64,000 nucleotides of DNA from an uncultured virus (IMG/VR IMGVR_UViG_3300021197_001546) (IMGVR_UViG_3300021197_001546), one strand, 5' to 3'; shown: positions 21,239 through 51,170, counted from the first letter of the stretch. Made by a program: numbers and translations. Notes: generated by a model from the sequence alone, not told the origin.

Positions 21239-22183
21239 TCAACCTTTCGCGTACTGAACAATTAACACGATACCCACAGAAGCAGCGAGTCCAACCATCA
21301 ACTTCAAGAAGTCTCGTCCCACGATCGGGAACACCTTTTTGATTCCTTCTTTCTGTCGGAAGGAGGCAATAGCGAGTTCTCTACCAGTAAGAAGTCCGAC
21401 GAACACCCAAGTCGTAGACATAGGAATGTCGTTCACTTCCTTGAAGATATACAGTATAACAAAGTAAAAGAGATCAATCAAGGTTGCAGATCGAACATAT
21501 TTCGTATTTTTCTTCTGTACTACGATCTCCTGAATCTTACCACCACGATGCTGAAGCATCCATGCAAGTCCACCAACAAAAACGGCGGAGATGATGAACA
21601 TGACTTCGACTGGAATCTGTCGTGGAAGATACACAGCAATATTTGCCATGTCGTGAGACAACCAAGTCCACCAAAGGAATCCAGTTGTCACCCATTGTCC
21701 AATGGACCACCACTTCTTATGAGAGTCCTTGATACTCTTACCCTCGTCGATCAGACGAGTCAGTACCAACCAGATGAAGTATGCGGCGACACCCGCAACG
21801 GCATACCCAAGCATCGACTTCATCAGAACTTTCTGTAGCACCAGTGTTGATGCGAATGCAGAAAGAACTAGGAATGAAGTAGAAACGGGCACACCGAAAC
21901 GAGTCAGAACGAGTAGCACTGCTGGGGCAAGTGCTTGATACCATTCTACTCCCTCGAACGGAATCTTATTGAGTCGTCCGTAAGAGATGTCACCGTCATA
22001 CGCCCACCATCCGTACCAGATGGCGATCAGAAGTACAGTGGAGGCGAACCCCCACATATACTTCCAATTCACCTTCTTGTTACTTGCAATCCAAGTTCCA
22101 AGAGTCTGGATCGAATCATTTGCAATTACACTGTATGCGGCGAGGAGAAACCCCGTCCACATCCATACTGTAATCTCAGTCAT
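21239..22183 (-). CDS. PiT-like (phosphate/anion) inner-membrane permease
   Basis: About 9-10 TM helices; duplicated signatures ANDS..T / HDMAN and PVSTS / PMSTT. Confidence 0.7.
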   Translation of the reverse strand: MTEITVWMWTGFLLAAYSVIANDSIQTLGTWIASNKKVNWKYMWGFASTVLLIAIWYGWWAYDGDISYGRLNKIPFEGVEWYQALAPAVLLVLTRFGVPVSTSFLVLSAFASTLVLQKVLMKSMLGYAVAGVAAYFIWLVLTRLIDEGKSIKDSHKKWWSIGQWVTTGFLWWTWLSHDMANIAVYLPRQIPVEVMFIISAVFVGGLAWMLQHRGGKIQEIVVQKKNTKYVRSATLIDLFYFVILYIFKEVNDIPMSTTWVFVGLLTGRELAIASFRQKEGIKKVFPIVGRDFLKLMVGLAASVGIVLIVQYAKG

Positions 22184-22991
22184 TATTCATTTCCAATGCA
22201 CGGATCATACGAGTGACACCGATTCCACCACCAACGCGAGGGAAGAAGTCATACTTCAGGAACTCTTCGAGTTCTGCTTCGACTCGATCCTTACCAAACT
22301 TCGAGTATAGAAGGTTGGCATAACCACCATCGGAAATGGTATGGAACATCTCACTCATCTCGTCTGGGTTTGCAGATCGTTCGGCAGAACCGATCGTCTC
22401 CTGACCCTCGATGATGACATCAATCTTCGCAGCGGTTCCATCACCGTTCTGCTTCATGTTCCAGAAGGGCGAAGTGTAGTTCGGGAAGTCTGTAATCATA
22501 CAGGTTCCGTGATCGTTACACATCTGCTCTTCGTGTTCGTTCTCTAGTTCTAGAACACCATACTCTGCGGCCCACTGTTCATATGCCTTTGCTTCGCACT
22601 GACCAAAACCAAGTTCAAGACAGAGTTCTCGTTCCATCACTTCAAGATCCCTTACATTGCCTGGCATCTCGAACTCAAACATTGGGAAGATGAGATCGTG
22701 CCTGCCTGGCACGGGGTTGGGTTCCTGTCGATAGGAAGTTGACACACAGAAATAACCAGTGTCAATGGGCTTGTTCAGGAGTTCATACTCCAACCACATC
22801 TGGCCGGTCTGTGGTAGAGGCCACACCTGTCCTGAGTAATCATAGGTTGAAACGGTGGTTGGATCCTCACACGCTGCAAGAATCGAAAGACGATTCTGGG
22901 TGTGAACCTCGACGAAACCCTTGTCTAAAAAGAAATTTCGCATCTTACCAACTGCGGACGTAAAACTAACGGGATCAATTAACTGAGTCAT
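22176..22991 (-). CDS. Class IIb aaRS (Asn/Asp) catalytic-domain paralogue lacking the anticodon-binding domain
   Basis: Motif 1 region FVEVHT, LPQTGQ, motif 2 YRQE...RH..F...EFE, ETIGSAER, motif 3 GGGIGVTR; only 271 aa. Confidence 0.8.
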   Translation of the reverse strand: MTQLIDPVSFTSAVGKMRNFFLDKGFVEVHTQNRLSILAACEDPTTVSTYDYSGQVWPLPQTGQMWLEYELLNKPIDTGYFCVSTSYRQEPNPVPGRHDLIFPMFEFEMPGNVRDLEVMERELCLELGFGQCEAKAYEQWAAEYGVLELENEHEEQMCNDHGTCMITDFPNYTSPFWNMKQNGDGTAAKIDVIIEGQETIGSAERSANPDEMSEMFHTISDGGYANLLYSKFGKDRVEAELEEFLKYDFFPRVGGGIGVTRMIRALEMNND

Positions 22992-29411: not shown

Positions 29412-29749
29412 TCACTGTCCTTGTCGTGGATGTAAGCAGAAAGTAGAACCATGTAATTGATTACGTCCACTATTGTATCAGAAAAACTCTCGTCTTCAAC
29501 ATGCATCTTACCAGAATCTATAAAAGAAGAAAGTCGGCTCATCTTGTCGGTGATGCGGGTCATGAAGCCTTGCTCGGTGGTACAAATGCCCATGGCTTCA
29601 ACTCGCGTAAAATTGGCAAAAGGTTCTTTGCCATCTTTGCCTGCATAGTCCCGATTCTTCAGATTCATTAAGTCTCGGGCAGATTGACAAATGTCAACAT
29701 GATATTTCAATAGTTCATCGCGGTTCATACTATACTCCTGTTGATCCAA
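29408..29749 (-). CDS. All-alpha nucleotide-modification-associated (Nmad1/DUF1599-like) protein
   Basis: KNRDYA...PFANF...RITDKMSRL...DTIVDVINY; lies between dut and gp43. Confidence 0.7.
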   Translation of the reverse strand: MDQQEYSMNRDELLKYHVDICQSARDLMNLKNRDYAGKDGKEPFANFTRVEAMGICTTEQGFMTRITDKMSRLSSFIDSGKMHVEDESFSDTIVDVINYMVLLSAYIHDKDSE

Positions 29750-30299
29750 ATCCGCCTTGACGGTCTGTTTTATTTTTCTTGGGGGTTGCTTGTGTGTAAG
29801 TGATGTGACTTATTCTTCGGTATGACTGAATCATTTCAATCTGTGCAATACGATCACCATGTTCAATTTTGAACGGGATATTTGTCGTGTTGTACAGAGG
29901 AACAAATACTTCATGACAATAATCAGAATCAATCACCCCCTCTGCATTGATCAATGTGATTCCGTTCTTCCAGGCAGAACCTGATCGGGGGTGGAGTCTG
30001 GCAGAAAACTCAACGGGAAGGTCCAGAACCATACCAGTAGGAATCAATGCTCGGCATTTTGGACCGAGTTCAAAAGTGCAGTTAGGGACATCACTATCGA
30101 ACACGATATCTGGCAGAGTTTCGTGTAGTTGATTATAACAGTCAAACCACTTGACGGTTCTCACAACTGCTGGTTTATCTTCTGGTGGAACGGGGGCACG
30201 CAAGTGAGCATGAATATCGTAACATGCTGCATTGTAAGTTCCTCGCTTGAGGTCAAGCGTATTGGGGTACAACTTATAAATCTTCATAGTCTCGGACAT
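29730..30299 (-). CDS. dut: Trimeric dUTPase
   Basis: AACYD, PRSG, GVIDSDY, GDRIAQ and RQGGFGSTG. Confidence 0.93.
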   Translation of the reverse strand: MSETMKIYKLYPNTLDLKRGTYNAACYDIHAHLRAPVPPEDKPAVVRTVKWFDCYNQLHETLPDIVFDSDVPNCTFELGPKCRALIPTGMVLDLPVEFSARLHPRSGSAWKNGITLINAEGVIDSDYCHEVFVPLYNTTNIPFKIEHGDRIAQIEMIQSYRRISHITYTQATPKKNKTDRQGGFGSTGV

Positions 30300-33790: not shown

Positions 33791-35074
33791 TTATCGTTTC
33801 GCCTTCTGTCGTTTTTTCTTCATTTGTCTTTGCTTTTCTCGTCTCTTTTCGAGAATCTTTTTCTTCTTTTGATTATCATTCTCTACCGCAGCAGCATACT
33901 GTTGTTGTTGCTGATGAATCTGTATCATTTGGTTCTTGTACAATTCGGCATTTTGTTGAATTCGTGGCTTCTCACTATCAGGAACTTTAGGGTTCTTTAG
34001 TAGATCAACACACGCATGATATCCCCTCTCAAAATCCTGATTATAGAAAGCACACGCAGCAAATTCATCCATTGCTTGCCAAGCATAAACATCACCAGAG
34101 ATGAACAAAATATCTCCCTCTGGATACTTAATCTCTGATGCAGTTTTCGCATATAAGTATCCAATTCTGGGTTCGTTTCTTTCCTGTCGATGAATTCTTG
34201 CTAATTGCCAAAGAGGTTCTGCCCTGCTCGGACGTAGAGCATACGCTTGAAGATATAGTTGTGAAGTTTCAGACCAATCCTTCTCGCTGATCGAGGCAAC
34301 AATTGCCATACGGTACGCCGAATACCACTGCTCTTCCTCCCAACCACCCGCTAATACACGAACCTTGTATGCTTCGAACGCTTTATCCCATTGCTGGGAA
34401 TCAAAGTATGACTGAGCAAGGTAAAACATATAGCGATGATTCTCGGGTTCATCCTTGAGTGCTTCAAGTAGAATCTCTGCGTCTCTAGAATACTTCTGAA
34501 TATGATCCTGAGTCTGATTTCTTTCGTAACCCATTGTTCTGGCCACAATGAAGTAATCTCCGTCAACCTTTCGAGTATCCCTACCCTGCTCTGGAGTAAG
34601 ATCGCAGTCAGCATATTCATGAAGGACGCCTGTATATCTCCAATTGATATCAGCACCCGTCTTAAACACCTGATTGCGCCACCACACAAAGTCACCACGC
34701 TGAATACGAAGAACATAGGAGGTAGCATCCATTACCTCAGGCCAAGCGAATCCTTTTTCGCCGATCTCGATGTAGTCATCCGCGTCAATGACCCAAGCGT
34801 ACTCGGCTTTACCGTCACAGTTTCGGAGAGACTCTGTTCGTGAACCCGTCTTTCCATTATGATCACCGAAACCTTTCCAGTCAGACTGGTAGACCTCGCC
34901 AGGAATTTCCTTCTCTTCGAAGAAGTCCTTGATGATTTGCTGGGTGCCGTCAGTAGAACCAGTGTCGGTGATATCGTAGCGATCGATATGCTTATAAACA
35001 GAGTTCAGACATTCGAGAATAATGTCCTTCTCATTCTTCACGATCATACACAATGTAATTTTAGGTAATTCCAT
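33791..35074 (-). CDS. GT2 glycosyltransferase with a C-terminal TPR-like region
   Basis: LCMIVKNE, DTGSTDGT, IDADD and GVLHE; helical YLAQSYFD...AY repeats. Confidence 0.88.
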   Translation of the reverse strand: MELPKITLCMIVKNEKDIILECLNSVYKHIDRYDITDTGSTDGTQQIIKDFFEEKEIPGEVYQSDWKGFGDHNGKTGSRTESLRNCDGKAEYAWVIDADDYIEIGEKGFAWPEVMDATSYVLRIQRGDFVWWRNQVFKTGADINWRYTGVLHEYADCDLTPEQGRDTRKVDGDYFIVARTMGYERNQTQDHIQKYSRDAEILLEALKDEPENHRYMFYLAQSYFDSQQWDKAFEAYKVRVLAGGWEEEQWYSAYRMAIVASISEKDWSETSQLYLQAYALRPSRAEPLWQLARIHRQERNEPRIGYLYAKTASEIKYPEGDILFISGDVYAWQAMDEFAACAFYNQDFERGYHACVDLLKNPKVPDSEKPRIQQNAELYKNQMIQIHQQQQQYAAAVENDNQKKKKILEKRREKQRQMKKKRQKAKR

Positions 35075-35083
35075 TATAATTCC

Positions 35084-35875
35084 TTATATGACATAATCAA
35101 GGACAGACTTCATAGTGTCCATGTTTTCTTTTAGTGGACGAATCATATTACACTCAGTATAAAATCCCGAGTACAATTTATCGATATCAAATTTAAAATT
35201 GGATCTATCAATCCAATGAACTCTATTACTTAGTCCTCGCAACTCATCTCTTCTCAGGTGCTGAATAGGTCCTTTGTATTCGGACAAGAAAACTCGTAAA
35301 ACAGATTCATCGGAAAAAGCAGTAAAAGGTTGATTCATTATATCTTCCTTTTGATCATACACTTTCATACCAACAAGTTCTCTAACAAATTCACCATACG
35401 ATTTATCTTTTGTTCTATAGACGTTTTGAAAAATTTCACCTTCAGCGGTCACTGGAACTAAAGGCGTTTTTCCCTGATCAGGTGTTCCATTATAAACTTC
35501 TGATCCTATCAAACAAACATTACCCTTTTCACGAAGAGACAACAAATCAAACAGATAATTTCTCTGAAGAGGAATCGTATCCATGTCATGAAGGGAACAA
35601 ACGAAACCTCCTTGCGTACCAGCGTGATAAGCCCTTGCAATTTTTCCTTGATTGCTCTGAGGAATACCATCTACCATTTCATATAATGTCACAGAACCGT
35701 ACTCTCTCATATCAGAAATTAGCGGGTCTGACTCTTTTCTTTTAGTAACAAAAGCCAAATCTACTTCAACATCAGGGAAAAACTTATACCAAGCAGAACA
35801 TACGACAGGCCAGAAGTCCAAAAACATGGAACGGTCGTCGCAACTTAAAATCACTTTATCAAAAGGAACTATCAC
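35084..35875 (-). CDS. Putative GT-A-fold glycosyltransferase
   Basis: FLDFWP, DMD (DxD) and SDE motifs; lies in the glycan island. Confidence 0.5.
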   Translation of the reverse strand: MIVPFDKVILSCDDRSMFLDFWPVVCSAWYKFFPDVEVDLAFVTKRKESDPLISDMREYGSVTLYEMVDGIPQSNQGKIARAYHAGTQGGFVCSLHDMDTIPLQRNYLFDLLSLREKGNVCLIGSEVYNGTPDQGKTPLVPVTAEGEIFQNVYRTKDKSYGEFVRELVGMKVYDQKEDIMNQPFTAFSDESVLRVFLSEYKGPIQHLRRDELRGLSNRVHWIDRSNFKFDIDKLYSGFYTECNMIRPLKENMDTMKSVLDYVI

Positions 35876-36420
35876 GATAATACCTCCAGTATTGTTTTTT
35901 TGTTTTGTTCGCTTTGATATATCACCTCTATTGTATCACCAAACTGTTCAAGATCAAGATATTTCTTACCACTTGGGCCCGAAAGGTATTTAGTTGCCCC
36001 ATAGTGCTTGCATATGTCATACAATCTTTCTGTTCTTTTAAGATCTGTTGGGTAGTCCAAAACTATCTCTGTTTGTATTCCAAGCATGAAACATATTTTT
36101 CTTATCAAACACACGTTAGTTTCAACCAAACTATCTGAAATACAATCATCAAATTGATCCAGAACAGATGAGTATTCTTTGAGATTAACTTTGATCTTGT
36201 TCCAGTCTTTGTCTGGAGAAAGATATCTCTTATCAACTATGGGTTCCAATCCTTTATTAACACTCATGGTGTTCCACTTATTATTTAAGTTGAATCTGTT
36301 TTGAAAGTTGTTCTTTTCATACTGACAATTGCACATAATCACAAATATATCCGAGGCATCTATCTTCTGAAAGAAAGGATACCAAGGCATGAAGTTAGGT
36401 TGATGTATTGATACAATCAA
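35872..36420 (-). CDS. wbqC: WbqC-family protein
   Basis: IHQPNFMPW, QYEKNNFQNR and YLSGPSGKKYL. Confidence 0.9.
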   Translation of the reverse strand: MIVSIHQPNFMPWYPFFQKIDASDIFVIMCNCQYEKNNFQNRFNLNNKWNTMSVNKGLEPIVDKRYLSPDKDWNKIKVNLKEYSSVLDQFDDCISDSLVETNVCLIRKICFMLGIQTEIVLDYPTDLKRTERLYDICKHYGATKYLSGPSGKKYLDLEQFGDTIEVIYQSEQNKKTILEVLS

Positions 36421-36965
36421 TCAAACCATTCCTTAAATTCATCTAACGTAAACTCTCTGTGGTGTAGATACCATAGTTTTTGTTTTGGATTATAATCATT
36501 ATACTCCATACACTTCCAACCATCCTCAAACTTAACAAGTTCTATCTGGTGTTCTTTGCAAATTTCCTCGGTGTCATTATTCCATTTATTGAATGGAGGA
36601 ACGAATACTCTTGCCTTTACTAAACTACAACTGGTAAGAATACTCAACTCCTGTGCTTCCTTGGATAGAAGTCTATGATCAACGTGGATCAGTCCGTGTC
36701 CCGCTAGAGTAACGTCCTCTGTTATTTCTGGAACACCACACTTGTCTGCAAAGTAGAATACTCTGGGATCACTGTGTGCATTTAGTATCTTTGGAAAAAT
36801 TCTTTGCTTGTGCTTTCCCTCTTCGTCAGACATGTCATGTACGAGAGGAGAGACGCAAAACAAAATTCTACAGTTATCAAACCTCTCTTTTAAGAACCTA
36901 GCCATTTTATGTGTCGTCTTCATATCTGCGTTTAAACAGATGTCATCGAATCTAAAAGTTTTCAT
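36417..36965 (-). CDS. Polysaccharide deacetylase/deformylase-like (NodB fold) protein
   Basis: FRFDD, HGLIH and FVPPFN motifs. Confidence 0.6.
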   Translation of the reverse strand: MKTFRFDDICLNADMKTTHKMARFLKERFDNCRILFCVSPLVHDMSDEEGKHKQRIFPKILNAHSDPRVFYFADKCGVPEITEDVTLAGHGLIHVDHRLLSKEAQELSILTSCSLVKARVFVPPFNKWNNDTEEICKEHQIELVKFEDGWKCMEYNDYNPKQKLWYLHHREFTLDEFKEWFD

Positions 36966-36973
36966 ACAACATC

Positions 36974-38068
36974 CTATAGTTTGTATTCGTTTACTACGTT
37001 CACAATTTTTATTTTATCTTGTTCTGTTAACCACCAACCACACGGGACATTCATCATTCTAGAATCAAAAAATTCTAAACCAGACAAATCATTTTTCTTG
37101 AACTTATCAAAAACACTATATCGCAAATTACTAACATGAGCAGAGTCTGTTGCGATTCCATTGTCCAACATGTATTTTCTAAAATCTTTTTTGTCTTCTA
37201 CTAAGATACTAAACAACCAAGAAGAAGATACTCTATCCGAATAACTGTCCATAATTGTAATGTTTGGATTACTGATATTGTCTCTAAAATATCTTGCGTT
37301 TGATATGTGTTTATCTATTAACTGATCTATTGTTTCCAGTTGACGCAATCCTATGACTGCATTAATATTATTCATGTGAAACTTATACCCACACTCTGGT
37401 ATGTCCTGCTCCCACCTAGATGCACATTTGAATTGTCTGTCTAATCCAAACCATCTCAACTTTCTAATTCTAGTTGCATCTTCCTCCGACTTACATACGA
37501 TTGCACCCCCATCCACTGTGGTTAAATGTTTAACCGCTTGGAAAGAAAAGCAAATATAATCTCCGTGATTGCCAATCTTTTTACCTTTATATTCTGATCG
37601 GAGTGCGTGTGCGGCATCCTCCACAACCTTGATGTCATTTTTTTCTGCGATATCTAATATTTCTTCCATGTCACATGGCTGTCCACCCCAATGCACAACT
37701 ATGATCGCTTTTGTTTTTTCAGTAATCTTTTCTCTGATACTATCTGGACATATATTTCCTGTCTTTGGATTGATATCAGCAAAGACAAGATTCGCTCCTG
37801 TATGATAGAATGGTTCATTTGTTGCCATGCATGTCATGGCGGTAGTTATCACTTCATCCTCAGAGGAAAGATCTAGCATATGTGCCGCTAGGTGTAAAGC
37901 ACTGGTGCATGAATTCACTAGACATGTATTTGGATTACCAATATACTCTCCTAGTTTTTTCTCAAACTCATCTGAGTAATCACCCTCGGTAATAAAACCA
38001 GTATCGAATATATCCTGTAATGTTTCGCCTATGTTTTCGGGAACATATACTTTCATTAATGGTATCAT
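36974..38068 (-). CDS. DegT/DnrJ/ArnB-family sugar aminotransferase
   Basis: NSCTSALHLA, VHWGG, EDAAHA and SFQAVKHLTTVDGG (PLP lysine). Confidence 0.93.
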   Translation of the reverse strand: MIPLMKVYVPENIGETLQDIFDTGFITEGDYSDEFEKKLGEYIGNPNTCLVNSCTSALHLAAHMLDLSSEDEVITTAMTCMATNEPFYHTGANLVFADINPKTGNICPDSIREKITEKTKAIIVVHWGGQPCDMEEILDIAEKNDIKVVEDAAHALRSEYKGKKIGNHGDYICFSFQAVKHLTTVDGGAIVCKSEEDATRIRKLRWFGLDRQFKCASRWEQDIPECGYKFHMNNINAVIGLRQLETIDQLIDKHISNARYFRDNISNPNITIMDSYSDRVSSSWLFSILVEDKKDFRKYMLDNGIATDSAHVSNLRYSVFDKFKKNDLSGLEFFDSRMMNVPCGWWLTEQDKIKIVNVVNEYKL

Positions 38069-38081
38069 AATTTTAAAATCC

Positions 38082-39137
38082 TCAATCGGGGAACACCGTT
38101 CCACCATAATATAAATTATACTCGCTGTTCTTGTACTTAGTCAAGACATATTCGTAAGTATTTTTAATCCCATCCTCAAACGAGGTGGAGGGTTTGTTTC
38201 CAAACTTAGATACAATTTTTGAGATGTCTGGTTTTCTTCTGTTGGGTTCGTCCTTTGGATAAAAAGATGGGTGTTCTATGATCCTAAGATTATCCATATT
38301 GCCATCTAAAATTTCATAGGATGTTTTACATACATCATATGCAGACATTTCTATATCCTCACTACCTACATTAAACACCTCCCCATTTGAATCGGATAAA
38401 AGCACTTTAATCATAAGCAATATGGCATCAGCAACATAGCAATATGTTCTAGTTTGTTTTCCGTCCCCATAGACAGACATGATATCATTTTCTGCAAGAC
38501 TCTTGCATAGATTTGCCATCATTCTCCCATCATCCAATCTCATGTATGGTCCGTATAGGTTAAAAGGACGGATGATTTTCACGGGTAGGTTTTGTTCGTT
38601 GTAAAAAATATCGGAGAGGGTTTCTATAACAAGTTTACCAACATCATAACAACTCCTGCTACTCATGGTTGGGATTTGTCCTGTGTATGTTTCTGGTGTT
38701 GGAATATGTTCTGCGGGTGGATCCCCATAAACCTCGCTAGATGAGAACACCATAACAGACTCCGCCTCATCCATAAGAGCCTTGTTAAACACGTTAACCG
38801 TTCCCGTATAAGAAACATCTAGAGTTTTAAAGGGTTGCTTCTTGTACCATTTTGGTGAGGCTATTCCAGCACCATTGATATAAAAGTGACACTTCGGAAT
38901 AGACTCTGGAAAATTAGATTTAGTAATATCTAAACTATCGGTATCCCCATGTATAACCGTGCATGACTCCGACTTGGTGTATACATTTTCGTTTAGATAC
39001 TCAAAGAAAGAAAGAAACCAACTTCCTAAAAATCCGTTCGTCCCCGATATAAAAATGTTTTTGTTTTTAAATCTTTCTAATTCTTCGACTGACAATTTTG
39101 ATACTATATTTTTTAAATCTCTATCAATGACTTTCAT
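38082..39137 (-). CDS. NAD-dependent SDR, UDP-glucuronate decarboxylase-like
   Basis: GTNGFLG, AGIASP, SSSEVYGDP, RSCYDVGK and GDGKQTRTYCYV. Confidence 0.88.
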   Translation of the reverse strand: MKVIDRDLKNIVSKLSVEELERFKNKNIFISGTNGFLGSWFLSFFEYLNENVYTKSESCTVIHGDTDSLDITKSNFPESIPKCHFYINGAGIASPKWYKKQPFKTLDVSYTGTVNVFNKALMDEAESVMVFSSSEVYGDPPAEHIPTPETYTGQIPTMSSRSCYDVGKLVIETLSDIFYNEQNLPVKIIRPFNLYGPYMRLDDGRMMANLCKSLAENDIMSVYGDGKQTRTYCYVADAILLMIKVLLSDSNGEVFNVGSEDIEMSAYDVCKTSYEILDGNMDNLRIIEHPSFYPKDEPNRRKPDISKIVSKFGNKPSTSFEDGIKNTYEYVLTKYKNSEYNLYYGGTVFPD

Positions 39138-39702
39138 TGTGTAATTCCTTCACATCAATTGGATCTATTTTATATTTACGCTCTAGTATTCTGGGAGATT
39201 CCATAATACATTTACTTACATTCTCTACAGTCATACCACTAATTAGTTTCAAACAAGAAACCACAAAGGAAGGTGCTATCGAACACTGCTTAATATATAG
39301 ACTCGTTTCTGTATCCTCTGGTAGCACTGGGTACGTTATTTTACTAACTATAGGTCCATGATCATATTCATCTGTCATCCTATGGAACGTGAGTCCCTGT
39401 TCTCTCTTTCCCTCATTCAACGTGTGTCTAAGAATATCAAGTCCTCCAAATTCAGGCAGCAATCCCGTGTGAAGGTTGAATGTTTTTGGGTTTGATTTTA
39501 TGAGAGAATCGTATTGAATAGATATGGCTAAATCATAATCGCAATTAATAGTGGTTTTTTCCAGTGAAACATTTCCCGGAACCGTGGATCTGATAGAGTT
39601 GGGAACATATCCTATCAAGTTAAAGTTATTCGATTTCAATTCATCGACGACTAACTCGGTTAAATATGTTGATCCAAGAATTAAAATTTTATCAATGTTC
39701 AA
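39124..39702 (-). CDS. Sugar N-formyltransferase
   Basis: FNLHTGLLPEFGG, TFHRM and YDHGPI. Confidence 0.85.
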   Translation of the reverse strand: MNIDKILILGSTYLTELVVDELKSNNFNLIGYVPNSIRSTVPGNVSLEKTTINCDYDLAISIQYDSLIKSNPKTFNLHTGLLPEFGGLDILRHTLNEGKREQGLTFHRMTDEYDHGPIVSKITYPVLPEDTETSLYIKQCSIAPSFVVSCLKLISGMTVENVSKCIMESPRILERKYKIDPIDVKELHNESH

Positions 39703-40618
39703 ACCAACTCTCCCATTCAGATTCTGTGCATTCTAAAAACGCATCGACTCCCATTCCTACTATTTTAGCACCACTTATATCTTTTAATTTAGAATCCGTT
39801 TTCCATATTGAACGATCGCCCCAGTAACCTTTCTGCTCTGATGCCATTGCTCCTATTATTATATTCACACCACCAAAGTATGATGCAATTATGGCATTAC
39901 CACCGGGAGTGCTGAAGTGTATATCCGATAAAGAATGCATCATACACTGTAATTCGTTATAATTTAGATGAGGGTATTGCACAAAAAGATCGGTATCAAC
40001 TATCATTTCATGGTGGTTTTCTTTTATTAGATGCTTGTCGTTCCATTCCATAATTAGGTTGTCGTCTTGTACATATCCCTTGGTACTAGACTCTGGTCTG
40101 AAGTAAATAATGGTGTGCGTATCTTTAAACTCATTGTAAATTTTAGAGATACAATCATTGTCTATTACATTAACTGGATTAAGTCCATGCTCTTTGCTAT
40201 ATTTGTTGTTTATAACCACCAAGGGTTTATCAAACATTTCATTCATACCGCACTCTTTTGCAAGTTTCGAAAAGTGTGACTTGAAGTCGGGAAATGAAAC
40301 CCTCTGCATTTCAGTATCGTGTTTATAATAGTCATGATACCCAACACCAACGGCATTCCAATAGTTTGCCATCTGACCACTGTTGGCAGGTTCGACATAT
40401 ATCTTTTTACCGCACGGGGCTGTGTGTGCAAACTGCTCTAGTTCTAAATCGTCGTGGTGATTTTTTGACCAAAAGTAAAAACAGGATGTCTCGGGGAGAG
40501 AATGTGTATGAACATCAAGGTGTGGTAAATTTTCCACAGCATAGTTCATGTGAGGGATTCCGACATGCAAAAGAAAACTAAATTCTTGGTGCAAGAACAT
40601 ATCAAATCTGTCTGTCAT
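39692..40618 (-). CDS. Hypothetical, possible glycosyltransferase
   Basis: 308 aa with INNKY..E and GGNAIIASYFGG; inside the glycan island. Confidence 0.45.
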   Translation of the reverse strand: MTDRFDMFLHQEFSFLLHVGIPHMNYAVENLPHLDVHTHSLPETSCFYFWSKNHHDDLELEQFAHTAPCGKKIYVEPANSGQMANYWNAVGVGYHDYYKHDTEMQRVSFPDFKSHFSKLAKECGMNEMFDKPLVVINNKYSKEHGLNPVNVIDNDCISKIYNEFKDTHTIIYFRPESSTKGYVQDDNLIMEWNDKHLIKENHHEMIVDTDLFVQYPHLNYNELQCMMHSLSDIHFSTPGGNAIIASYFGGVNIIIGAMASEQKGYWGDRSIWKTDSKLKDISGAKIVGMGVDAFLECTESEWESWFEH

Positions 40619-41322
40619 ATCGCTACCCTATCCACAATCCACTTGTCCAGAACATCTCTGTCAGCCTGGGACCAAAGAGTGTCGTCGGCTTTCACTGCCT
40701 CACCGACAAAGTAAACCATAGCATCGGGATCACGTTCGACCGTAGGGAAAGGTTTATTCTCGGAATGAAAGGGATCGTGCGTAACATTATCTTCAATAGC
40801 AAGAGGCCATATCAGACCCCACAAAAATGCTTGATCGGATCCCTTTGAGTCTGCGTGATAGTTTCCATTCACGAACTGCTGGATTTTCAATCTCATATTG
40901 ATTCTAGCAGTTCTTTTCATTCCCCACATGCCGCCCATGATCGCCGTAGTGTGATAGGGATGATCTCTCATAACATGAAAGTTCTTGTCCGACTTCATCC
41001 ACTCGTCAACTGCTTCCTTCTCTCGGACGGACAAACGAGAATCTGTGTCTCTCGAAATGAAACACTCAACATCTTCATCATCACATGCAGTAAATCGCCA
41101 CATCATTGAGTTGGATGTTCCCACTTCGTCTTTAACAATGACTTCGACATTGTCATATTCCATAAGACGATCGACGACTTCGATTGGTGTGTTTTTGCCA
41201 GCAATATAAAACCGACAAATCCAGTCGGGATAAATCTCTTTGGCCAACTCTACGTTCTTGTATGCACCATCAAGATAAAAAGGATCATCCCCCCACAACG
41301 AAAAAGTAATAAGTTTTTTCAT
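40615..41322 (-). CDS. Putative GT-A-fold glycosyltransferase
   Basis: SLWG, WRF, SRDTDSR, MRDHPYH, MGGMWG and DQ.FL motifs. Confidence 0.6.
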   Translation of the reverse strand: MKKLITFSLWGDDPFYLDGAYKNVELAKEIYPDWICRFYIAGKNTPIEVVDRLMEYDNVEVIVKDEVGTSNSMMWRFTACDDEDVECFISRDTDSRLSVREKEAVDEWMKSDKNFHVMRDHPYHTTAIMGGMWGMKRTARINMRLKIQQFVNGNYHADSKGSDQAFLWGLIWPLAIEDNVTHDPFHSENKPFPTVERDPDAMVYFVGEAVKADDTLWSQADRDVLDKWIVDRVAI

Positions 41323-41945
41323 TGAGTCACCACCGATTCTGTTTCTTCTGTAGACCACTTGTAAACGTGAAGAAATTCATCAGACTTATATGATCGTAAA
41401 ACCTTGGGGTAAAGTCTAGACAACCACTGAATATCTTCACACGACTGACCTGTCTGGGAATAAGTTTCGACAAACTGTTCACTTTGAGCCAATTCAGTTT
41501 TCCAGCAACACCAATGATAAGGGGGACGAAGAGTATCTCTATACTCTCCCGTTTGATCCACAAGAACAGGATCGTGGGGGTTATACATGTCACAAAAAAT
41601 ACGGGCATGCTTACCGTCAAGATAGGCATTTTGATTAAAAGAAATCACATCCCATGAAGGATCATTCTCAATGATGTCAGTCAAACAAGAAATGTAATTA
41701 TCTTCTACATCATCGTCATCGTCAAGCCAACAAAGATGACTTCCCCGAGCAGCGTTCAATAGAACATTTCTCTTTTCGTAGATATGAAAAGACTTATTAT
41801 CAATGAAAGAAAGGACTTCTACGTCTTCTCTGTCACCAATCTGTTCGAGCAATTTATTTTGTAGGACGGTATATTTTTCGAGTCTCGAAGGAATCGAGAG
41901 TATTAGAATACTAAGTTTTATCAGCGACGGATCTTTCGGCATCAA
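41319..41945 (-). CDS. GT2-like glycosyltransferase
   Basis: LSILI, KRN.LL..ARG, LDDDD and CED. Confidence 0.8.
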   Translation of the reverse strand: MMPKDPSLIKLSILILSIPSRLEKYTVLQNKLLEQIGDREDVEVLSFIDNKSFHIYEKRNVLLNAARGSHLCWLDDDDDVEDNYISCLTDIIENDPSWDVISFNQNAYLDGKHARIFCDMYNPHDPVLVDQTGEYRDTLRPPYHWCCWKTELAQSEQFVETYSQTGQSCEDIQWLSRLYPKVLRSYKSDEFLHVYKWSTEETESVVTQ

Positions 41946-42642
41946 GACGCTCCTTCACGGAATTCATATCAAAATCATTTTTCATTCGCTCCTGATAGAT
42001 TGCTCCATCTTTCGCATACATTTCTGCGTTCTCGTTTCTTTGATGGAGAGCATCAGCATCAGGATGATCTCCTGGCACCCAAGCATGTCGAATAATACAT
42101 GTAGGAGAAACCGCCAAGATATCCATCTTAGCAAACAACGCAGTCATTTCTGTGTCGCAGTATATTGATGTATAATCGGGATGATATAGATGTCCCATTG
42201 CCTTATACAAAGGGAAACCAAGGACTGGCAACGTCATCAACAGATCTTCTGGACCACGAAGTCCATCATTGAATTTAATGGAACCGCAATAGTCGGGAAA
42301 GAGTTGATTGAAACCCTGAGCAATGATATCATCCCATCCTTCTAAACAGGGAACCATGTCATCACTGACAAGAACGAGAATGTCACCATTTTCGTCTTCA
42401 AGATCAGCATTACATGCCTCAATCTTAGTCTTAGATTGTCCATAGTTGTACTTGAGATCAATGTCCAATGAGTCCAACCACTCTTTGATCTCAGGAGTGT
42501 TCATAGAAGTATCATCTTCATCCATTGTAATAACGAAACGAAGATCGTGCTTCCCAGAAAGGAAGTCGATATACTTTTGTAGAACACTCTTGAATTTTTC
42601 TGGACGGGATCTAGTTGGAAATTTTACCACAATTTTTGACAT
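41911..42642 (-). CDS. GT2-like glycosyltransferase
   Basis: PTRSRP, VSDDM and YCD.E. Confidence 0.78.
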   Translation of the reverse strand: MSKIVVKFPTRSRPEKFKSVLQKYIDFLSGKHDLRFVITMDEDDTSMNTPEIKEWLDSLDIDLKYNYGQSKTKIEACNADLEDENGDILVLVSDDMVPCLEGWDDIIAQGFNQLFPDYCGSIKFNDGLRGPEDLLMTLPVLGFPLYKAMGHLYHPDYTSIYCDTEMTALFAKMDILAVSPTCIIRHAWVPGDHPDADALHQRNENAEMYAKDGAIYQERMKNDFDMNSVKERLDAERSVADKT

Positions 42643-46425: not shown

Positions 46426-47115
46426 TCACTTTGAAACTTTAATTAGAACTACGTCACCGCTCACGCGACCAGTGACTTCTAGATTCTTGTTCTTCAGTTT
46501 GTCCATTTCTTGCTTTACCGATCGCACTCCAGCATTGGCAATATCTTGCAGTCTCATCTTGGAGCGACCAAAATTCTTACCGTATGACTTATCGGGATTG
46601 AAATTGTGAATCGTAGTGCCTTTCACTTCAAATCCCGTGTCGCTTTCATACCAGAACAACTTGTTCTGCTTACAATTATAGCACACAAGAATCTTAGATC
46701 CAATGATTTGTTCGGGATTGATGGACTTTACTCCATCACATTCTTCTTTGAACTTCATCTTCTTGACCTGAACAGAGGCAGACTTTGCTCGCTTACGGCG
46801 AGTAATCTTGCTGTTGGTCTCTAGGAAGTCTCTAACAAGAGTGGCAAAAGAAATCAGGTGATTCAACTTTGTCTTCGAAAGAAAGTCCCAAGCCTCTCGA
46901 AGATCTTCGTCTCCGTCGAGAGCAGATTCAATCTCGTCAACCAAAGAGGCATATTGATCAACCAATTCTTTCATGTCTCTTTTAGTTGGCTTATATGCCT
47001 TGACCAAACCTGCTACCTTGGGCTTCTGCGTAGACGTACCCTGTCTCAAATTCTCGATATACCGATCAGTCATCAGGTCGAGAACGGACGCTAAATTATC
47101 TTGACTCGTCTTCAT
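46426..47115 (-). CDS. Hypothetical protein conserved in T4-like phages
   Basis: SINP..IIG, F.VKGTT and GR.....L motifs. Confidence 0.6.
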   Translation of the reverse strand: MKTSQDNLASVLDLMTDRYIENLRQGTSTQKPKVAGLVKAYKPTKRDMKELVDQYASLVDEIESALDGDEDLREAWDFLSKTKLNHLISFATLVRDFLETNSKITRRKRAKSASVQVKKMKFKEECDGVKSINPEQIIGSKILVCYNCKQNKLFWYESDTGFEVKGTTIHNFNPDKSYGKNFGRSKMRLQDIANAGVRSVKQEMDKLKNKNLEVTGRVSGDVVLIKVSK

Positions 47116-48688
47116 TAGGCTTAAAGAATACAAATACTGGTTCGTATTTGAGATACTTTCCTTTCACTTGACAAAAGTTCTTACACTTGGGCTTACCATC
47201 TTCACCGACGCGGTTCTGACCTGGCATCCCTTCTAGGGCCATCTTCATAGTGTATCTATAAATCATTCCGTTGTCAAGTAGTATGTCCTTCGAATCCTGC
47301 TCCAGAGGTAAGTATTTTCCGCTCACCAAAATGTCGGCAATATTCCAGAGAAGATATCCGCCAGGTCGCAGCCACTCAACGGCAGTTTCGAGAGTAGGCT
47401 TCAGGAATCCGTCTCGCCACGATTCGTAGGATGAACCATACTTTTTGTAACTCTGGTTTTCATCTTCACTATAAGCCTCTCGATTAAAATAAGGAGGTGA
47501 AGTAAATACCAAGTCAATTTCGCCTCGGTGTCTTTGAAAATCTTCATTGTGTCGTATCTCCTCGGATCCTAGTTGGAAGACTTCGTGGGTGTTGGTGCTA
47601 GAGAAGAATGGATTTGATCTGTATGTCTTGGTGTTATAAAAATCCGCGACATCAGAATATCTAGAATCCATATCAGAATAAAAATTATCTGGATTGGGGT
47701 CGGTGCCGATGTAATGTACAGTACGGTCATCACGGATAGCCATAGCACCAAGTATCCTACCACCCCAACCACTGCTAGGATCGTAGATCTTGATTTGTCG
47801 GTCTTTGATATGATCGGTGAATCTTTCATAGAGATATTTCGCAGTCATTGGAGGGAAGTTTACTGCGGGTTGAATGTAACCAATGCGAAAAGATTTGAAC
47901 CCGCCAGGAAAAATCTTCTTACCTTTATCATACAAACGAATAGCATAGACATGATCATCATCCATATTTTCGATATCAAACGTCGAGTGATGACGATACT
48001 CTAGACGGTCTTGTATCGCCTCAACTTGATCCTTCGTTAGTTGAAGAATGTCTGACTGCTCCAATTGAAAGTATCCACTATTCAATCCCTCTCGGATTTT
48101 GACCTGCTCTAATAGAAAATCCTTTCCCTTGAACATGTCTGGATAATTAAAGAAAGTCCGAATCCAATCTTCGCCGTTATCCACATTGACAACAGAGTGC
48201 TTTGTGTCGTTCTTGATGGTAGAAAGGGCGTGGCTGTAGAACGAATCTCGTCGAAAGTGTCGCAATGATCCTTTGTAGACTCTCTCAAGGTAGTCAGGGT
48301 TCGCTACGAGATCATAGATCGAGTATCCGTTGTCCTTCTCGGTATAGTTGATACGAGTCTTGAACATATTATCAAAGAACTGATCGACCTCAACACCGAG
48401 TCGTGATTTATTAATGATAACTTCTTTAGGCGTATCAGACAACTCGTCATCAAACTCAAATTCATGAACAGGAAACTCAGACATACGATTGAATGCCGTA
48501 ATCATATCCTCTTCGTTCTTTCCTGTTCGTGGAGGACAGCCGTATGTGTCCCACGCGGCAGTTAACTCTGCACGAAGTTGAACCACCCAATCTTTAAATT
48601 GATCGGGTGTCATTTCTAGAAGGTCTTCAAAGTTTACATTCACATCGCTATTGATGATGTGATCATTACGCTGGTAAGGTATATTCAC
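47096..48688 (-). CDS. Amino-DNA-methyltransferase-fold protein (N4C/N6A type) with a long N-terminal extension
   Basis: YDPSSGWGGR, YIGTDPN, FTSPPYF and LRPGG. The GTG start overlaps the upstream stop (GTGA). Confidence 0.8.
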   Translation of the reverse strand: MNIPYQRNDHIINSDVNVNFEDLLEMTPDQFKDWVVQLRAELTAAWDTYGCPPRTGKNEEDMITAFNRMSEFPVHEFEFDDELSDTPKEVIINKSRLGVEVDQFFDNMFKTRINYTEKDNGYSIYDLVANPDYLERVYKGSLRHFRRDSFYSHALSTIKNDTKHSVVNVDNGEDWIRTFFNYPDMFKGKDFLLEQVKIREGLNSGYFQLEQSDILQLTKDQVEAIQDRLEYRHHSTFDIENMDDDHVYAIRLYDKGKKIFPGGFKSFRIGYIQPAVNFPPMTAKYLYERFTDHIKDRQIKIYDPSSGWGGRILGAMAIRDDRTVHYIGTDPNPDNFYSDMDSRYSDVADFYNTKTYRSNPFFSSTNTHEVFQLGSEEIRHNEDFQRHRGEIDLVFTSPPYFNREAYSEDENQSYKKYGSSYESWRDGFLKPTLETAVEWLRPGGYLLWNIADILVSGKYLPLEQDSKDILLDNGMIYRYTMKMALEGMPGQNRVGEDGKPKCKNFCQVKGKYLKYEPVFVFFKPNEDESR

Positions 48689-49458
48689 GATCCTACATTC
48701 CAAAAAAGTGCGCCAGGTGACGCATGATCTTTGATAAACTCCCACGCCTTTGCGTCGTAGGTTGGGGCTGACGGAAATGGGGGCAACACTTTGGTCGGTT
48801 TATTGAAGGCATATTCCGACTTGTAGATCCTCGCATTTCCGTACGAGCCACTATGTCCCACACGCACACAGTGAAAGGAGGATCGTGGCCACGCGAGTTG
48901 TAGTCCTCTGGTGAGTGTCCCACTTGATCCTACCGTCCAGACTTCAGAAGGTTGAACATCCATACCTCTAGCAACGCGAGCAATGGAAGCGACAACAGTA
49001 GGATGATCAAACCCAATAGGAAGTAATCTGCGGCACGTTGGATCTTCTGCAACATAGTCTCTTGCCCTTTTTTCAGTAACACTAAGCATTCCGTTTGGAA
49101 CCCAGTTCATTATAGCACCCGCTTCAATCGCTTGCAACTGATAAGGATGTCTTTTTTCGACAGCACGATCTGCCATGAACACAACTGCCTTCTTGTCATA
49201 CTTAGTACAGAGATGTGCAAGTGAAATCTGTGCGTAACCAGTGGCAGGAGAACTACCATACACCCACTCCTTGATTTCAGGTTGCGAACGAATCAGGTAG
49301 TCGGCAAATCGCATCTTAGATCCGCCACCAATGAGATCGTCACGGACGACGAGGAAGCCATCATGCTCCTCCACTACGGGGGGAGGCAGAGGATCGGCCC
49401 AATCACCAATCAGAGTTTCGTAATCTTCTGATGTCAATTCAAATAAACTAGACATCAC
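48685..49458 (-). CDS. Fold-type II PLP-dependent enzyme (ACC deaminase/D-cysteine desulfhydrase-like)
   Basis: VVRDDL..GGSKMR (PLP lysine), VGSSGT, PTYDAKAW and FWNVG. Confidence 0.78.
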   Translation of the reverse strand: MMSSLFELTSEDYETLIGDWADPLPPPVVEEHDGFLVVRDDLIGGGSKMRFADYLIRSQPEIKEWVYGSSPATGYAQISLAHLCTKYDKKAVVFMADRAVEKRHPYQLQAIEAGAIMNWVPNGMLSVTEKRARDYVAEDPTCRRLLPIGFDHPTVVASIARVARGMDVQPSEVWTVGSSGTLTRGLQLAWPRSSFHCVRVGHSGSYGNARIYKSEYAFNKPTKVLPPFPSAPTYDAKAWEFIKDHASPGALFWNVGS

Positions 49459-51170
49459 TTAATCCTGCTGAAGTTGTTTTTCTTTTCGAAGGTCATCGTT
49501 GCAGGGAACTTGTCAGTAAGTTGATCTGCCTTGTGACTGATCACGAAGATATTACATTTCTTTCCGAGAGCATGAAGCAATTTCATAAACTCTTCTGTTC
49601 CTATACCGTCAAGCGACGAGTCGAAAACTTCATCGAGAATAAGAAGATTGCAGTTAGCACTATTCTTGATGCGAGCAATCTCTCTCCATGCCAACAGAAG
49701 AGCAAGATCAATACGCAACTTCTCACCCTCACTGAAACTCATGTAGGAGAAGGCATCACGATGACGACTTTTGATCGTTTCGTTGAACTCTTCATCCAAG
49801 TGGAACCTAGCAAAGAAGTCCATAGAAGAAAGATATGCATTGATCATCTTATTCATGATGGGAAGATAGTGCTTTATGATCTTCGACTTTATCCCCGAGT
49901 CCTTGAGGAGAGTGTAAGCAATCGATTGTTGATTCTGGACATCAATGATTGTTTCTTTTTCTTTTTCTGATCTCTCACAATCAGACTTATAGGATGATAA
50001 GTTTTCGGTGGACTCGTCGAGAGAGGAAGTGTCTTGCGAAGCCGACGATCGCATTTTTTGTAAGTCGGTGATGTGTTTGTTCGAGGCCGATACTCTACCA
50101 TTGAGTTCCGTGAGCGACGATTGCTTTTCGGATACGACATCGAGAACTTCGTTGATTTCTTTATTACGCTCAAGAAGGGCCTCCATCTTTTCAGTCATTT
50201 CATTTAAACCTGTTTTTAACTTGCCGAGTTTGTCGGTAATGTCTGTCTCGCGTTCTTTGATCAGAGTCTCAGGAAGGTCCTGACCACACGAACCACACAC
50301 ACTATCATTACGAATCTTATCGAGATCACTGGTGAAGTTATTAACTTTAGTTTCAACTCTCGACACAATCTTTTCTAGAGACTGAATGTCACTTGCATTT
50401 GAATGCCGATCGGCAATCATGTTCACAGATTTTTCAATTTCGCTGGACAGAATTTCAGACTCAGATTGTAATTCAGTTAGGCTCTCAACTGCACTGTCAA
50501 TCTTCTCGTCAAAATCGGCAAGTGATCTTTCACTCTTCTGTCGAATAGAATCAATGTGAGTCTGTTGGATTTCGATCTTATCCTTAAGGGTTTCGATTGT
50601 TCTATTGACTTCCTTGATCTCTTCTTTCGCCACGGACATCTTCTCTTTCAGAAGAGTGTTCATCGTAGAGAAGACATTGATATCAAGAATATCCTCGATA
50701 ACTGACCGTCGATCTGCCGCAGACAACTGCATGAAGGGAACGAAAGAAGAACTACCAAGAATCACCACCTGAGTGAATGACTTGTAATTCATTCGGAGAA
50801 TCTGCTCTTCGAGCATCTTCTGATAGTCTTTAGATTTGGCGTGCTGATTAATCAATTCGTCGTTCTTGAAGATCTCAAACTTTTTAGGTTTGAGTCCACG
50901 AACAACTCTATAATTATCATCGTTGACAGAAAACTCTACGTCAACTAAACAATCCTTCTGGTTGATCGAGTTAACCAGTTGGGGGATATTGATCTTTCTG
51001 AATGGCTTACCAAACAAAGCAAACGTGATAGAATCCAAAAGAGCAAAAGATTTACCGTGTCCGTTGTTACCACAGACAAGAGTCATCGGTCTTTTATCGA
51101 GAAGTATCTCGGTTGGTGTATTACCAAACGATCCGAAGTTTTGGAATATTACTTTATGAAAGTTAATCAC
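49455..51170 (-). CDS. gp46: Rad50/SbcC-like recombination ATPase
   Basis: GNNGHGKS, coiled coil with CGSC hook, FSEGE and LDEVFD. Confidence 0.95.
   Translation of the reverse strand: MINFHKVIFQNFGSFGNTPTEILLDKRPMTLVCGNNGHGKSFALLDSITFALFGKPFRKINIPQLVNSINQKDCLVDVEFSVNDDNYRVVRGLKPKKFEIFKNDELINQHAKSKDYQKMLEEQILRMNYKSFTQVVILGSSSFVPFMQLSAADRRSVIEDILDINVFSTMNTLLKEKMSVAKEEIKEVNRTIETLKDKIEIQQTHIDSIRQKSERSLADFDEKIDSAVESLTELQSESEILSSEIEKSVNMIADRHSNASDIQSLEKIVSRVETKVNNFTSDLDKIRNDSVCGSCGQDLPETLIKERETDITDKLGKLKTGLNEMTEKMEALLERNKEINEVLDVVSEKQSSLTELNGRVSASNKHITDLQKMRSSASQDTSSLDESTENLSSYKSDCERSEKEKETIIDVQNQQSIAYTLLKDSGIKSKIIKHYLPIMNKMINAYLSSMDFFARFHLDEEFNETIKSRHRDAFSYMSFSEGEKLRIDLALLLAWREIARIKNSANCNLLILDEVFDSSLDGIGTEEFMKLLHALGKKCNIFVISHKADQLTDKFPATMTFEKKNNFSRIK

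Follow-up and report, generated by a model that had tools for sequence, protein, structure and literature searches.

In the stretch of DNA analysed here, 64,000 nucleotides from an uncultured virus (IMG/VR IMGVR_UViG_3300021197_001546) that we refer to as the window, a gene for a pyridoxal 5'-phosphate (PLP)-type protein of 257 amino acids is directly followed by a gene for an S-adenosylmethionine (SAM)-dependent amino-methyltransferase-type protein of 530 amino acids. These two genes are a real and conserved functional unit, as judged from their adjacency in viral loci, from fusions of the two domains and from the insertion of one domain inside the other. Jointly, the pair probably makes a modification that is larger than a methyl group. 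The window is part of the genome of a marine T4-like myovirus, and the genes lie on the minus strand in its replication/recombination module. An earlier reading made from the nucleotide sequence alone (the sequence-only reading) had described gp46, the PLP gene and an SPPY-type methyltransferase gene as overlapping via GTGA in a replication operon, and both junctions indeed read GTGA.

Linkage and fusion of the two genes

Viral loci were collected with the PLP protein as seed. Of 31 such loci, seven end inside or at the PLP gene, and the other 24 are informative. The pair is adjacent in 20 of them: the methyltransferase gene lies directly after the PLP gene in 18, and the order is reversed, with the methyltransferase gene first and overlapping the PLP gene, in two (L032 and L033, from a different phage type with PhoH). 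The pair is also much more conserved between relatives than the flanking genes, as in L004, where the PLP protein and the methyltransferase are 87% and 84% identical to those of the window, versus 61% for gp47, 53% for gp46 and 37% for the downstream gene. Just upstream of the reversed pair in L032 (3370-4074) lies a gene of the PNP_UDP_1 phosphorylase superfamily, which includes the methylthioadenosine/S-adenosylhomocysteine nucleosidases; it would fit the removal of an inhibitory by-product of SAM. Other genes take the place of the methyltransferase gene in two loci. A very long cysteine-rich open reading frame (ORF), running off the locus, follows the PLP gene from L020:6767 onward, and in a T4-like relative (L028:5087-8144) a 54% identical PLP gene is preceded by a uracil-DNA glycosylase gene and followed by an overlapping gene for a 456-amino-acid GT1-like glycosyltransferase.

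The two domains are also found in single proteins. All 29 longer relatives of the PLP protein were searched for motifs, and 15 of them were scanned with Pfam; PLP and methyltransferase domains are fused in 27. In 11 relatives a methyltransferase of the window type (DPxxGxG ... TSPPY) precedes the PLP domain, several of those scanned having an Asp/Asn beta-hydroxylase-type domain between the two, and in one the PLP domain comes first. In 14 others the PLP domain is inserted between motif I and motif IV of a second kind of methyltransferase; about 50 residues separate it from motif I (DPFAGGS) on the upstream side, and about 35 from motif IV (D-x-x-F-S/T-CPPY) on the downstream side. Most methyltransferases of this second kind (9 of 14) have an N-terminal motif of the ParB type (Pfam ParB_N, 0.0011 on P0142). 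P0134, in which motif IV comes after the PLP domain, is apparently a truncated member of the inserted kind, and two relatives lack methyltransferase motifs. Three cultured phages carry the fused form, and gene 7 of one of them, Erythrobacter phage ZS04, is of the inserted kind and comes in addition to the 14. The co-occurrence in other genomes that the sequence-only reading had named as a check on its proposal is found both as adjacency and as fusion.

Among the bacterial fusions, a protein of Nitrosomonas nitrosa (P0124, 1148 amino acids) matches residues 26-523 of the window methyltransferase through its N-terminal part (30% identity, 4e-61), has a hydroxylase domain in the middle and ends in a PLP domain that is 53% identical to the window PLP protein. 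Searches of the window with P0124 and P0122 (tblastn) found no copy of the Asp/Asn-hydroxylase domain, and a search for related loci among genome contigs, seeded with P0124, returned none. Of the best 150 representatives of the PLP family, 34 are at least 340 amino acids long; N6_N4_Mtase was found in 14 of these, a YunG-type domain in nine, a hydroxylase domain in two, DUF3102 in one, and nothing beyond PALP in ten. The YunG-type (PF24585) fusions (P0271, P0276, P0279, P0284, P0290, P0292, P0295, P0330 and P0355) share the conserved positions NPTxNYCY, H and DLTxxQF, a pattern that looks like the Cys-His-Asp triad of a hydrolase. A hidden Markov model (HMM) built from these nine relatives found no YunG-like domain in the window.

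Because two unrelated methyltransferase lineages have joined the same PLP family in three arrangements, sequence comparison provides strong evidence that the PLP and methyltransferase activities work on one substrate.

Properties of the two proteins

For the PLP protein, PHROG 7093, which carries the label 'threonine dehydratase', is a match at 6.6e-34. Among the 1.84 billion representatives searched, the protein has 1184 relatives with E ≤ 0.001 (counted at the 50% identity level); 756 of these reach E ≤ 1e-10, and 144 reach E ≤ 1e-30. At the 90% level about 2100-2350 clusters match each of the two proteins of the pair. Searched as single sequences against the PDB, both proteins gave chance-level matches only. 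The alignment of 94 stand-alone members of the PLP family shows invariant G46, K48 and G180, the last in an SSGT loop, and nearly invariant R39, D40, D41, P226, P227, D235, K237, W239, W253 and N254; the family has the RDDL...GG-x-K signature. The profile of these 94 sequences matches cysteine synthase best in the PDB (4.5e-7), the 1-aminocyclopropane-1-carboxylate (ACC) deaminase homologue 1j0a at 1.9e-5, and also TrpB and serine dehydratase, all within the range 4.5e-7 to 1e-3. Similarly, the relatives in L032 and L033 exceed the cut-off of Pfam PALP (PF00291), with 41.1 and 38.8 bits versus 35.

The AlphaFold2 model of the PLP protein (predicted local distance difference test, pLDDT, 95.7; predicted template modelling score, pTM, 0.92) has 1j0a as its best Foldseek match (TMq 0.79), followed by the D-cysteine desulfhydrase 4d92 (0.76) and threonine deaminases, and all top matches are fold-type-II enzymes. 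The family profile, the conserved lysine with the glycine-rich loop and the two-domain alpha/beta fold place the protein among the fold-type-II PLP enzymes. Given the profile, the model and the conserved lysine, the 257-amino-acid protein is read as a shortened ACC-deaminase-like PLP enzyme whose predicted cofactor lysine is intact. It shares the RDDL...GG-x-K signature with ACC deaminase and D-cysteine desulfhydrase, its best structural matches, but is about 70 residues shorter than these, is only 13-14% identical to them and stands in a genetic context that indicates nucleic acid and not small-molecule metabolism.

The characterised relatives are gp52 of Pseudomonas phage M6 and gp226 of Salmonella phage ViI, which are described, in the parts of the study that concern them, as yellow PLP-type proteins with absorbance at 410-425 nm that act as decarboxylases on C-alpha-glycinyl-thymidine and O-seryl-thymidine in DNA (Lee et al., NAR 2022, PMC8989533). 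There 1j0a served as the modelling template for gp226, the same ACC-deaminase-like structure that is the best match here (PMC8989533). An HMM built from 46 members of the PLP family had one match among the six-frame ORFs of M6 (7.4e-16, profile positions 47-251), which takes in the lysine (SKIRG) as well as two C-terminal motifs, PFPxxPxYDxKAW and FWNIG. The matched ORF was identified as gp52 from its neighbours, an amino-acid:DNA transferase (PF18724), a radical-SAM protein and a 5-hydroxymethyldeoxyuridine (5-hmdU) kinase (PF18748). Pairwise tblastn against the window gave 4.6e-6 and 23% identity over 260 amino acids. By these alignments the PLP protein is a true homologue of gp52, a proven DNA-adduct decarboxylase, and the statement in the sequence-only reading that related phage PLP enzymes decarboxylate amino-acid-modified thymidines is confirmed for gp52. 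The protein looks active and of the gp52 kind. From the alignment to gp52, together with the signatures of the fold-type-II family, K48 and G180 are the putative cofactor sites.

The setting of the PLP gene differs from that of gp52. In the window its partner is a SAM-dependent amino-methyltransferase-type enzyme, and no 5-hmdU kinase, amino-acid:DNA transferase or radical-SAM isomerase stands alongside. When the proteins of the M6 hypermodification cluster were compared with the window by tblastn, none but gp52 found a match in this part of the genome, in line with the earlier statement that the window has no genes of the hmdU pathway. PF18724 and PF18748 were not found in the complete genomes of three cultured phages that carry the PLP family of the window (Microcystis phage Mae-JY30 and Erythrobacter phages R6L and ZS04), and the M6 genome, used as positive control, was found by both searches. 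Single-protein searches also gave nothing, and neither domain was found in four partial T4-like relatives (31-54% complete). Because these three complete genomes lack both the 5-hmdU kinase and the amino-acid:DNA transferase, the PLP/methyltransferase pair is independent of the thymidine (hmdU) pathway.

The 530-amino-acid protein exceeds the cut-off of Pfam N6_N4_Mtase (PF01555; 29.3 bits versus 26.7), the match covering the motif IV half only (residues 391-492). Invariant in 37 sequences are D303, P304, G307, G309, G310 and R311 of motif I, D330, E376, D392, T396-S397-P398-P399-Y400 of motif IV, and N449; motif I precedes motif IV. Its AlphaFold2 model (pLDDT 87.7) has a class I methyltransferase core, the Foldseek matches are all SAM methyltransferases, M.BseCI among them, and VIA lists the amino-group methyltransferases Trm11 (Z 15.9, root-mean-square deviation 2.7, 179 residues aligned), TrmN, Trm14, METTL5 and PrmC, with Z values of 15-16 for Trm11, TrmN and Trm14. 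Profile, motif I with (D/N/S)PP(Y/F), and class I fold together assign the predicted enzyme to the N6/N4 amino-methyltransferases. Orphan and ParB-fused phage DNA N6-adenine/N4-cytosine methyltransferases of PF01555 have the same class I SAM fold, motif I and (S/C)PPY motif, but the window enzyme differs from them in its constant linkage or fusion to PLP, glutamine-synthetase-like and Asp/Asn-hydroxylase-like enzymes and in an N-terminal domain of 275 amino acids without an assigned fold. This N-terminal part, which the sequence-only reading had put at about 280 residues and called a region of unknown function, gave no Pfam match at E ≤ 1 over about 275 residues; it lies outside the Foldseek and VIA matches, which cover the methyltransferase core only, and its Atlas scores are 0.83 or lower. 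It is conserved in P0124 and P0122 and possibly serves in target recognition.

Alternative partners, proposed chemistry and rival explanations

A search seeded with gp46 gave 17 loci, some of which pair the methyltransferase with a different partner. In nine of them gp46 is followed by a methyltransferase 65-72% identical to that of the window, and an HMM search within these loci (filters off, E ≤ 0.01) found no member of the PLP family. A glutamine-synthetase-like ligase comes next after the methyltransferase in six of the nine (L042, L043, L046, L048, L049 and L054); these ligases match PF00120 at 1e-15 to 1e-21 and have a beta-grasp domain (for example L046:8251-9747), and some copies carry a thioredoxin-like N-terminus. 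Two of the nine loci end inside the methyltransferase. As for the rest of the 17, the PLP gene follows gp46 in three close relatives (L038-L040), after which the locus ends, four loci end in or right after gp46, and in one (L051) gp46 is followed by gp45 and gp44 without the cassette. In L042 and L054 a small SNase-like ORF lies between gp46 and the methyltransferase gene. No glutamine-synthetase-like gene was found in the window or in the PLP-bearing loci. Since the ligase is not found beside the PLP gene, nor the PLP gene beside the ligase, the methyltransferase-type enzyme is what stays constant, with the PLP enzyme and the ligase as alternatives.

A PLP decarboxylase needs a primary amine beside a carboxylate, and for a ligase of the glutamine-synthetase type either a carboxylate or an amine is required; a methylated base provides neither of the two. 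Both types of partner act on groups of the amino-acid type, which are absent from a methyl mark, and this supports the transfer of something other than methyl. To our knowledge, the 3-amino-3-carboxypropyl (acp) group is the only part of SAM other than methyl that methyltransferase-fold enzymes hand over and that has both an amine and a carboxylate. Transfer of acp is proposed because the partners need an amine or a carboxylate, because acp carries both, and because microcin C gives a precedent.

Accordingly, the two genes would act as a unit that modifies bases in the phage's own DNA in two steps. The 530-amino-acid enzyme would bind SAM via its intact motifs I to III and hold the amine of a flipped-out base with TSPPY; instead of methyl, or besides it, it would transfer the acp group, releasing methylthioadenosine and leaving an N-(3-amino-3-carboxypropyl) base. 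The PLP enzyme, by homology, would then bind the alpha-amine of the side chain as a Schiff base and remove CO2, and the resulting N-(3-aminopropyl) base, positively charged, could hinder host nucleases. In relatives the side chain may be amidated or glutamylated (glutamine-synthetase-like ligase), hydroxylated (Asp/Asn-hydroxylase-like enzyme) or otherwise tailored. This specific route, in which a base amine receives acp that is then decarboxylated to aminopropyl, is drawn by analogy and is put forward as a tentative, if plausible, one. The sequence-only reading had suggested that the SAM-binding enzyme transfers something other than methyl, for example aminocarboxypropyl, which the PLP enzyme trims. 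This suggestion is supported in part: the coupling of the two enzymes that it implies has gained from the linkage and the homology to gp52, and the transfer of something other than methyl from the alternative glutamine-synthetase-like partner and the microcin C example. Which group is moved, to which base (N6-A, N4-C or N2-G), in DNA and not RNA, in what sequence of steps and for what biological purpose is what we infer by comparison.

The precedent comes from microcin C, for which the consulted part of a review describes MccD, of the methyltransferase type, as transferring acp from SAM, and the N-terminal PLP domain of MccE as decarboxylating it to aminopropyl (PMC10491745). As there, a methyltransferase-fold SAM enzyme is genetically coupled to a PLP-type enzyme, here through adjacency in viral loci and fusions in longer relatives, and the likeness is one of logic only. 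The decarboxylase domain of MccE has a different PLP fold, and the microcin C enzymes act on a peptidyl-nucleotide phosphoramidate and not on a nucleic-acid base. The MccD structure (PDB 5FCD) is not among the matches listed by Foldseek or VIA, which excludes nothing.

Several observations weigh against the proposed acp route on DNA. Its chemistry is argued from comparison and from the analogy to MccD/MccE just described. The SAM-binding and catalytic motifs of the 530-amino-acid protein are those of ordinary amino-methyltransferases, and no sequence feature separating acp transfer from methyl transfer was seen in it. The nearest solved structures are the tRNA N2-methylguanine (m2G) methyltransferases Trm11, TrmN and Trm14, which makes an RNA target, or the N2 of guanine, possible. 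The window PLP protein, taken as a single sequence, has no Pfam match at E ≤ 0.01, PALP included. The PLP gene lacks such a methyltransferase in four of the 24 informative loci (L020, L027, L028 and L030), and one of the nine methyltransferase loci (L047) has neither a PLP nor a glutamine-synthetase-like partner within 5 kb. A complex prediction for the two proteins with SAM and PLP scored 0.00, which says nothing either way. The pair might then be an ordinary orphan DNA amino-methyltransferase making N6-methyladenine (m6A), N4-methylcytosine (m4C) or m2G to protect the phage DNA, with a PLP-type protein that serves as an accessory subunit or plays an unrelated or non-catalytic part. The N6_N4_Mtase score over cut-off, the full set of intact methyltransferase motifs and the solitary methyltransferase of L047 agree with this, as do the annotators of the cultured phages, who name the fused proteins DNA methylases; gene 1 of R6L is treated as a CcrM-like methylase in the available passages of the paper on that phage, which contain no chemical analysis of R6L DNA. 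However, a methyl mark would leave the PLP enzyme or the ligase without a substrate, the PLP lysine and the phosphate loop are invariant in 94 sequences, the PLP domain lies inside the methyltransferase in 14 of the 29 longer relatives, and the nearest characterised PLP relative acts, as far as described in PMC8989533, on DNA-bound amino acids. We consider this explanation unlikely.

It is quite unlikely that the PLP enzyme decarboxylates an adduct made by some other enzyme, after which the methyltransferase N-methylates the resulting side-chain amine or the base. Both gp52 and gp226 are described as acting late in a multi-enzyme pathway (PMC8989533), the window covers part of a genome only, and in L028 the GT1-like gene follows the PLP gene where the methyltransferase would be expected; yet neither the amino-acid:DNA transferase nor the 5-hmdU kinase turned up in the three complete genomes of cultured phages in searches that found the positive control, and bacterial single polypeptides that join methyltransferase and PLP domains, with or without the hydroxylase, suggest a self-sufficient unit. 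The same product could also be reached in reverse order, the PLP enzyme decarboxylating SAM and the methyltransferase-fold enzyme transferring aminopropyl as spermidine synthase does. An altered donor of this sort had been raised by the sequence-only reading, and section 2.1.1 of the microcin C review leaves the order via decarboxy-SAM open for MccD/MccE (PMC10491745). This order is nevertheless very unlikely here, given that the characterised PLP homologues act on DNA-bound substrates and not on SAM, according to the passages cited above, and that the alternative glutamine-synthetase-like partner fits a side chain still bearing its carboxylate. Most improbable of all is RNA (tRNA, rRNA or cap) as the target instead of DNA. 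The best structural neighbours are the tRNA m2G enzymes and the rRNA m6A enzyme METTL5, but the Z scores of many methyltransferases fall within 13-16, so that their ranking does not discriminate. In addition, the genes sit in a replication/recombination operon, the PLP homologues are described as acting on DNA, and 9 of the 14 fused relatives of the inserted kind have the ParB-type N-terminal motif. ParB-type domains are DNA-binding domains typical of phage DNA methylases.

Distribution, significance and genomic surroundings

The stretch is present in marine or seawater metagenome runs of at least ten studies. In one seawater DNA run, the summed contig depth over 47316-47996 and 48678-49131 reaches two to three times the flanking level, and several co-occurring phages appear to share the conserved methyltransferase and PLP parts at 90% nucleotide identity or more. 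Two metatranscriptome libraries contain a few exact 151-nucleotide pieces inside the methyltransferase gene, gp46, rnh and the gp46/PLP junction; these are not counted as expression, as they may come from DNA carry-over.

Literature searches found no paper on DNA modification by a methyltransferase together with a PLP enzyme. More speculatively, ocean T4-like phages, other phages and some bacteria may share a combinatorial family of N-alkylamine hypermodifications, in which a methyltransferase-fold 'writer' would attach acp from SAM to the exocyclic amine of bases in DNA and interchangeable tailoring enzymes (PLP decarboxylase, glutamine-synthetase-like ligase, Asp/Asn-hydroxylase-like oxygenase or glycosyltransferase) would act on the acp side chain. 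We know of no phage DNA hypermodification route that does not start from a C5-altered pyrimidine, a 7-deazaguanine or a replacement base. If true, the route proposed here would start from SAM and an ordinary base amine, adding new chemistry to DNA; it would be the first to mark DNA with acp or aminopropyl from SAM, would put the methyltransferase fold to a new use on nucleic acids, and would yield an N-alkylamine family parallel to, and independent of, the systems based on 5-hmdU and 5-hydroxymethylcytosine. The enzymes would be able to attach amine handles to DNA at defined sites. Because the family is large (1184 representatives) and the phage occurs in so many marine studies, such a mark could be common in ocean viral DNA, with possible effects on restriction, sequencing and host defence. 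Since three cultured phages carry the fused form, the idea can be tested directly.

Table 1. Positions of the gene pair, its predicted functional sites and neighbouring genes in the window
Feature	Position	Strand	Basis
gp46 (SbcC/Rad50-like recombination nuclease subunit), upstream of the pair	49455-51170	(-)	Pfam SMC_N 1.7e-16; PHROG 77 (SbcC-like) 2e-163
GTGA overlap, gp46 stop / PLP gene start	49455-49458	(-)	Sequence read directly
Gene for the 257-aa fold-type-II (ACC-deaminase-like) PLP-type protein	48685-49458	(-)	PHROG 7093, HMM, AlphaFold2, Foldseek
Lys48 codon, predicted Schiff-base lysine in VVRDDLIGGGSKMRF	49315-49317	(-)	Invariant in 94 sequences; aligned to the SKIRG lysine of M6 gp52
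GTGA overlap, PLP gene stop / methyltransferase gene start	48685-48688	(-)	Sequence read directly
Gene for the 530-aa SAM-dependent amino-methyltransferase-type protein, proposed 'writer'	47096-48688	(-)	Pfam, AlphaFold2, VIA, P0124 alignment
N-terminal ~275 aa of the methyltransferase-type protein	47864-48688	(-)	Outside Pfam and structural matches; conserved in P0124 and P0122
Motif I (DPSSGWGGR), predicted SAM-binding loop	47756-47782	(-)	Invariant residues in 37 sequences
Motif IV (TSPPY), predicted catalytic amino-group-binding motif	47489-47503	(-)	Invariant in 37 sequences
ThyX	20507-21235		Window neighbour
dUTPase	29730-30299		Window neighbour

The features of the pair and its neighbours are listed in Table 1. 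At the upstream junction the TGA of gp46 (49457-49455) overlaps the GTG of the PLP gene (49458-49456), and an in-frame ATG comes next at 49455-49453; at the downstream junction the TGA of the PLP gene (48687-48685) overlaps the GTG of the methyltransferase gene (48688-48686). The methyltransferase start was set at 48688 and not at the start of the longest ORF (48745) because the homologues begin at MNIPYQRN. Along the minus strand, genes for a gp55-like sigma factor, gp47 and gp46 precede the pair, which is followed by a conserved unknown gene, RNase H, gp45, gp44, gp62 and RegA, and then by a sugar-nucleotide/glycosyltransferase cluster, dUTPase, gp43, UvsX, gp41 and gp61. ThyX lies further along; both it and the dUTPase had been pointed out in the sequence-only reading.

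That reading had also placed an Nmad1-like gene beside gp43. An ORF of 113 amino acids does lie there, between the dUTPase gene and gp43 (29408-29749, minus strand), but its match to PF07659 ('Nucleotide modification associated domain 1', E 7.7e-4) is sub-threshold, with 20.2 bits versus a cut-off of 25; it also matches PHROG 1485. The cluster between RegA and the unknown genes adjoining the dUTPase gene (33791-42642, minus strand) comprises about ten genes, which encode GT2 and other glycosyltransferases, a WbqC-like protein, a DegT-type aminotransferase, an NAD epimerase/dehydratase and a formyltransferase, and looks like one for the synthesis of a formamido or amino deoxy-sugar. Between the primase gene and ThyX (22176-22991, minus strand) is a gene for a 271-amino-acid protein that consists of the catalytic core of a class II aminoacyl-tRNA synthetase only (PF00152, 1.2e-15; PHROG 29758, function unknown, 4e-121). 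Finally, an ORF of 333 amino acids adjoining the ribonucleotide reductase gene (16269-17270, minus strand) matches phosphate-selective porin O/P (PF07396, 2.8e-9) and may be an auxiliary gene for phosphate uptake.

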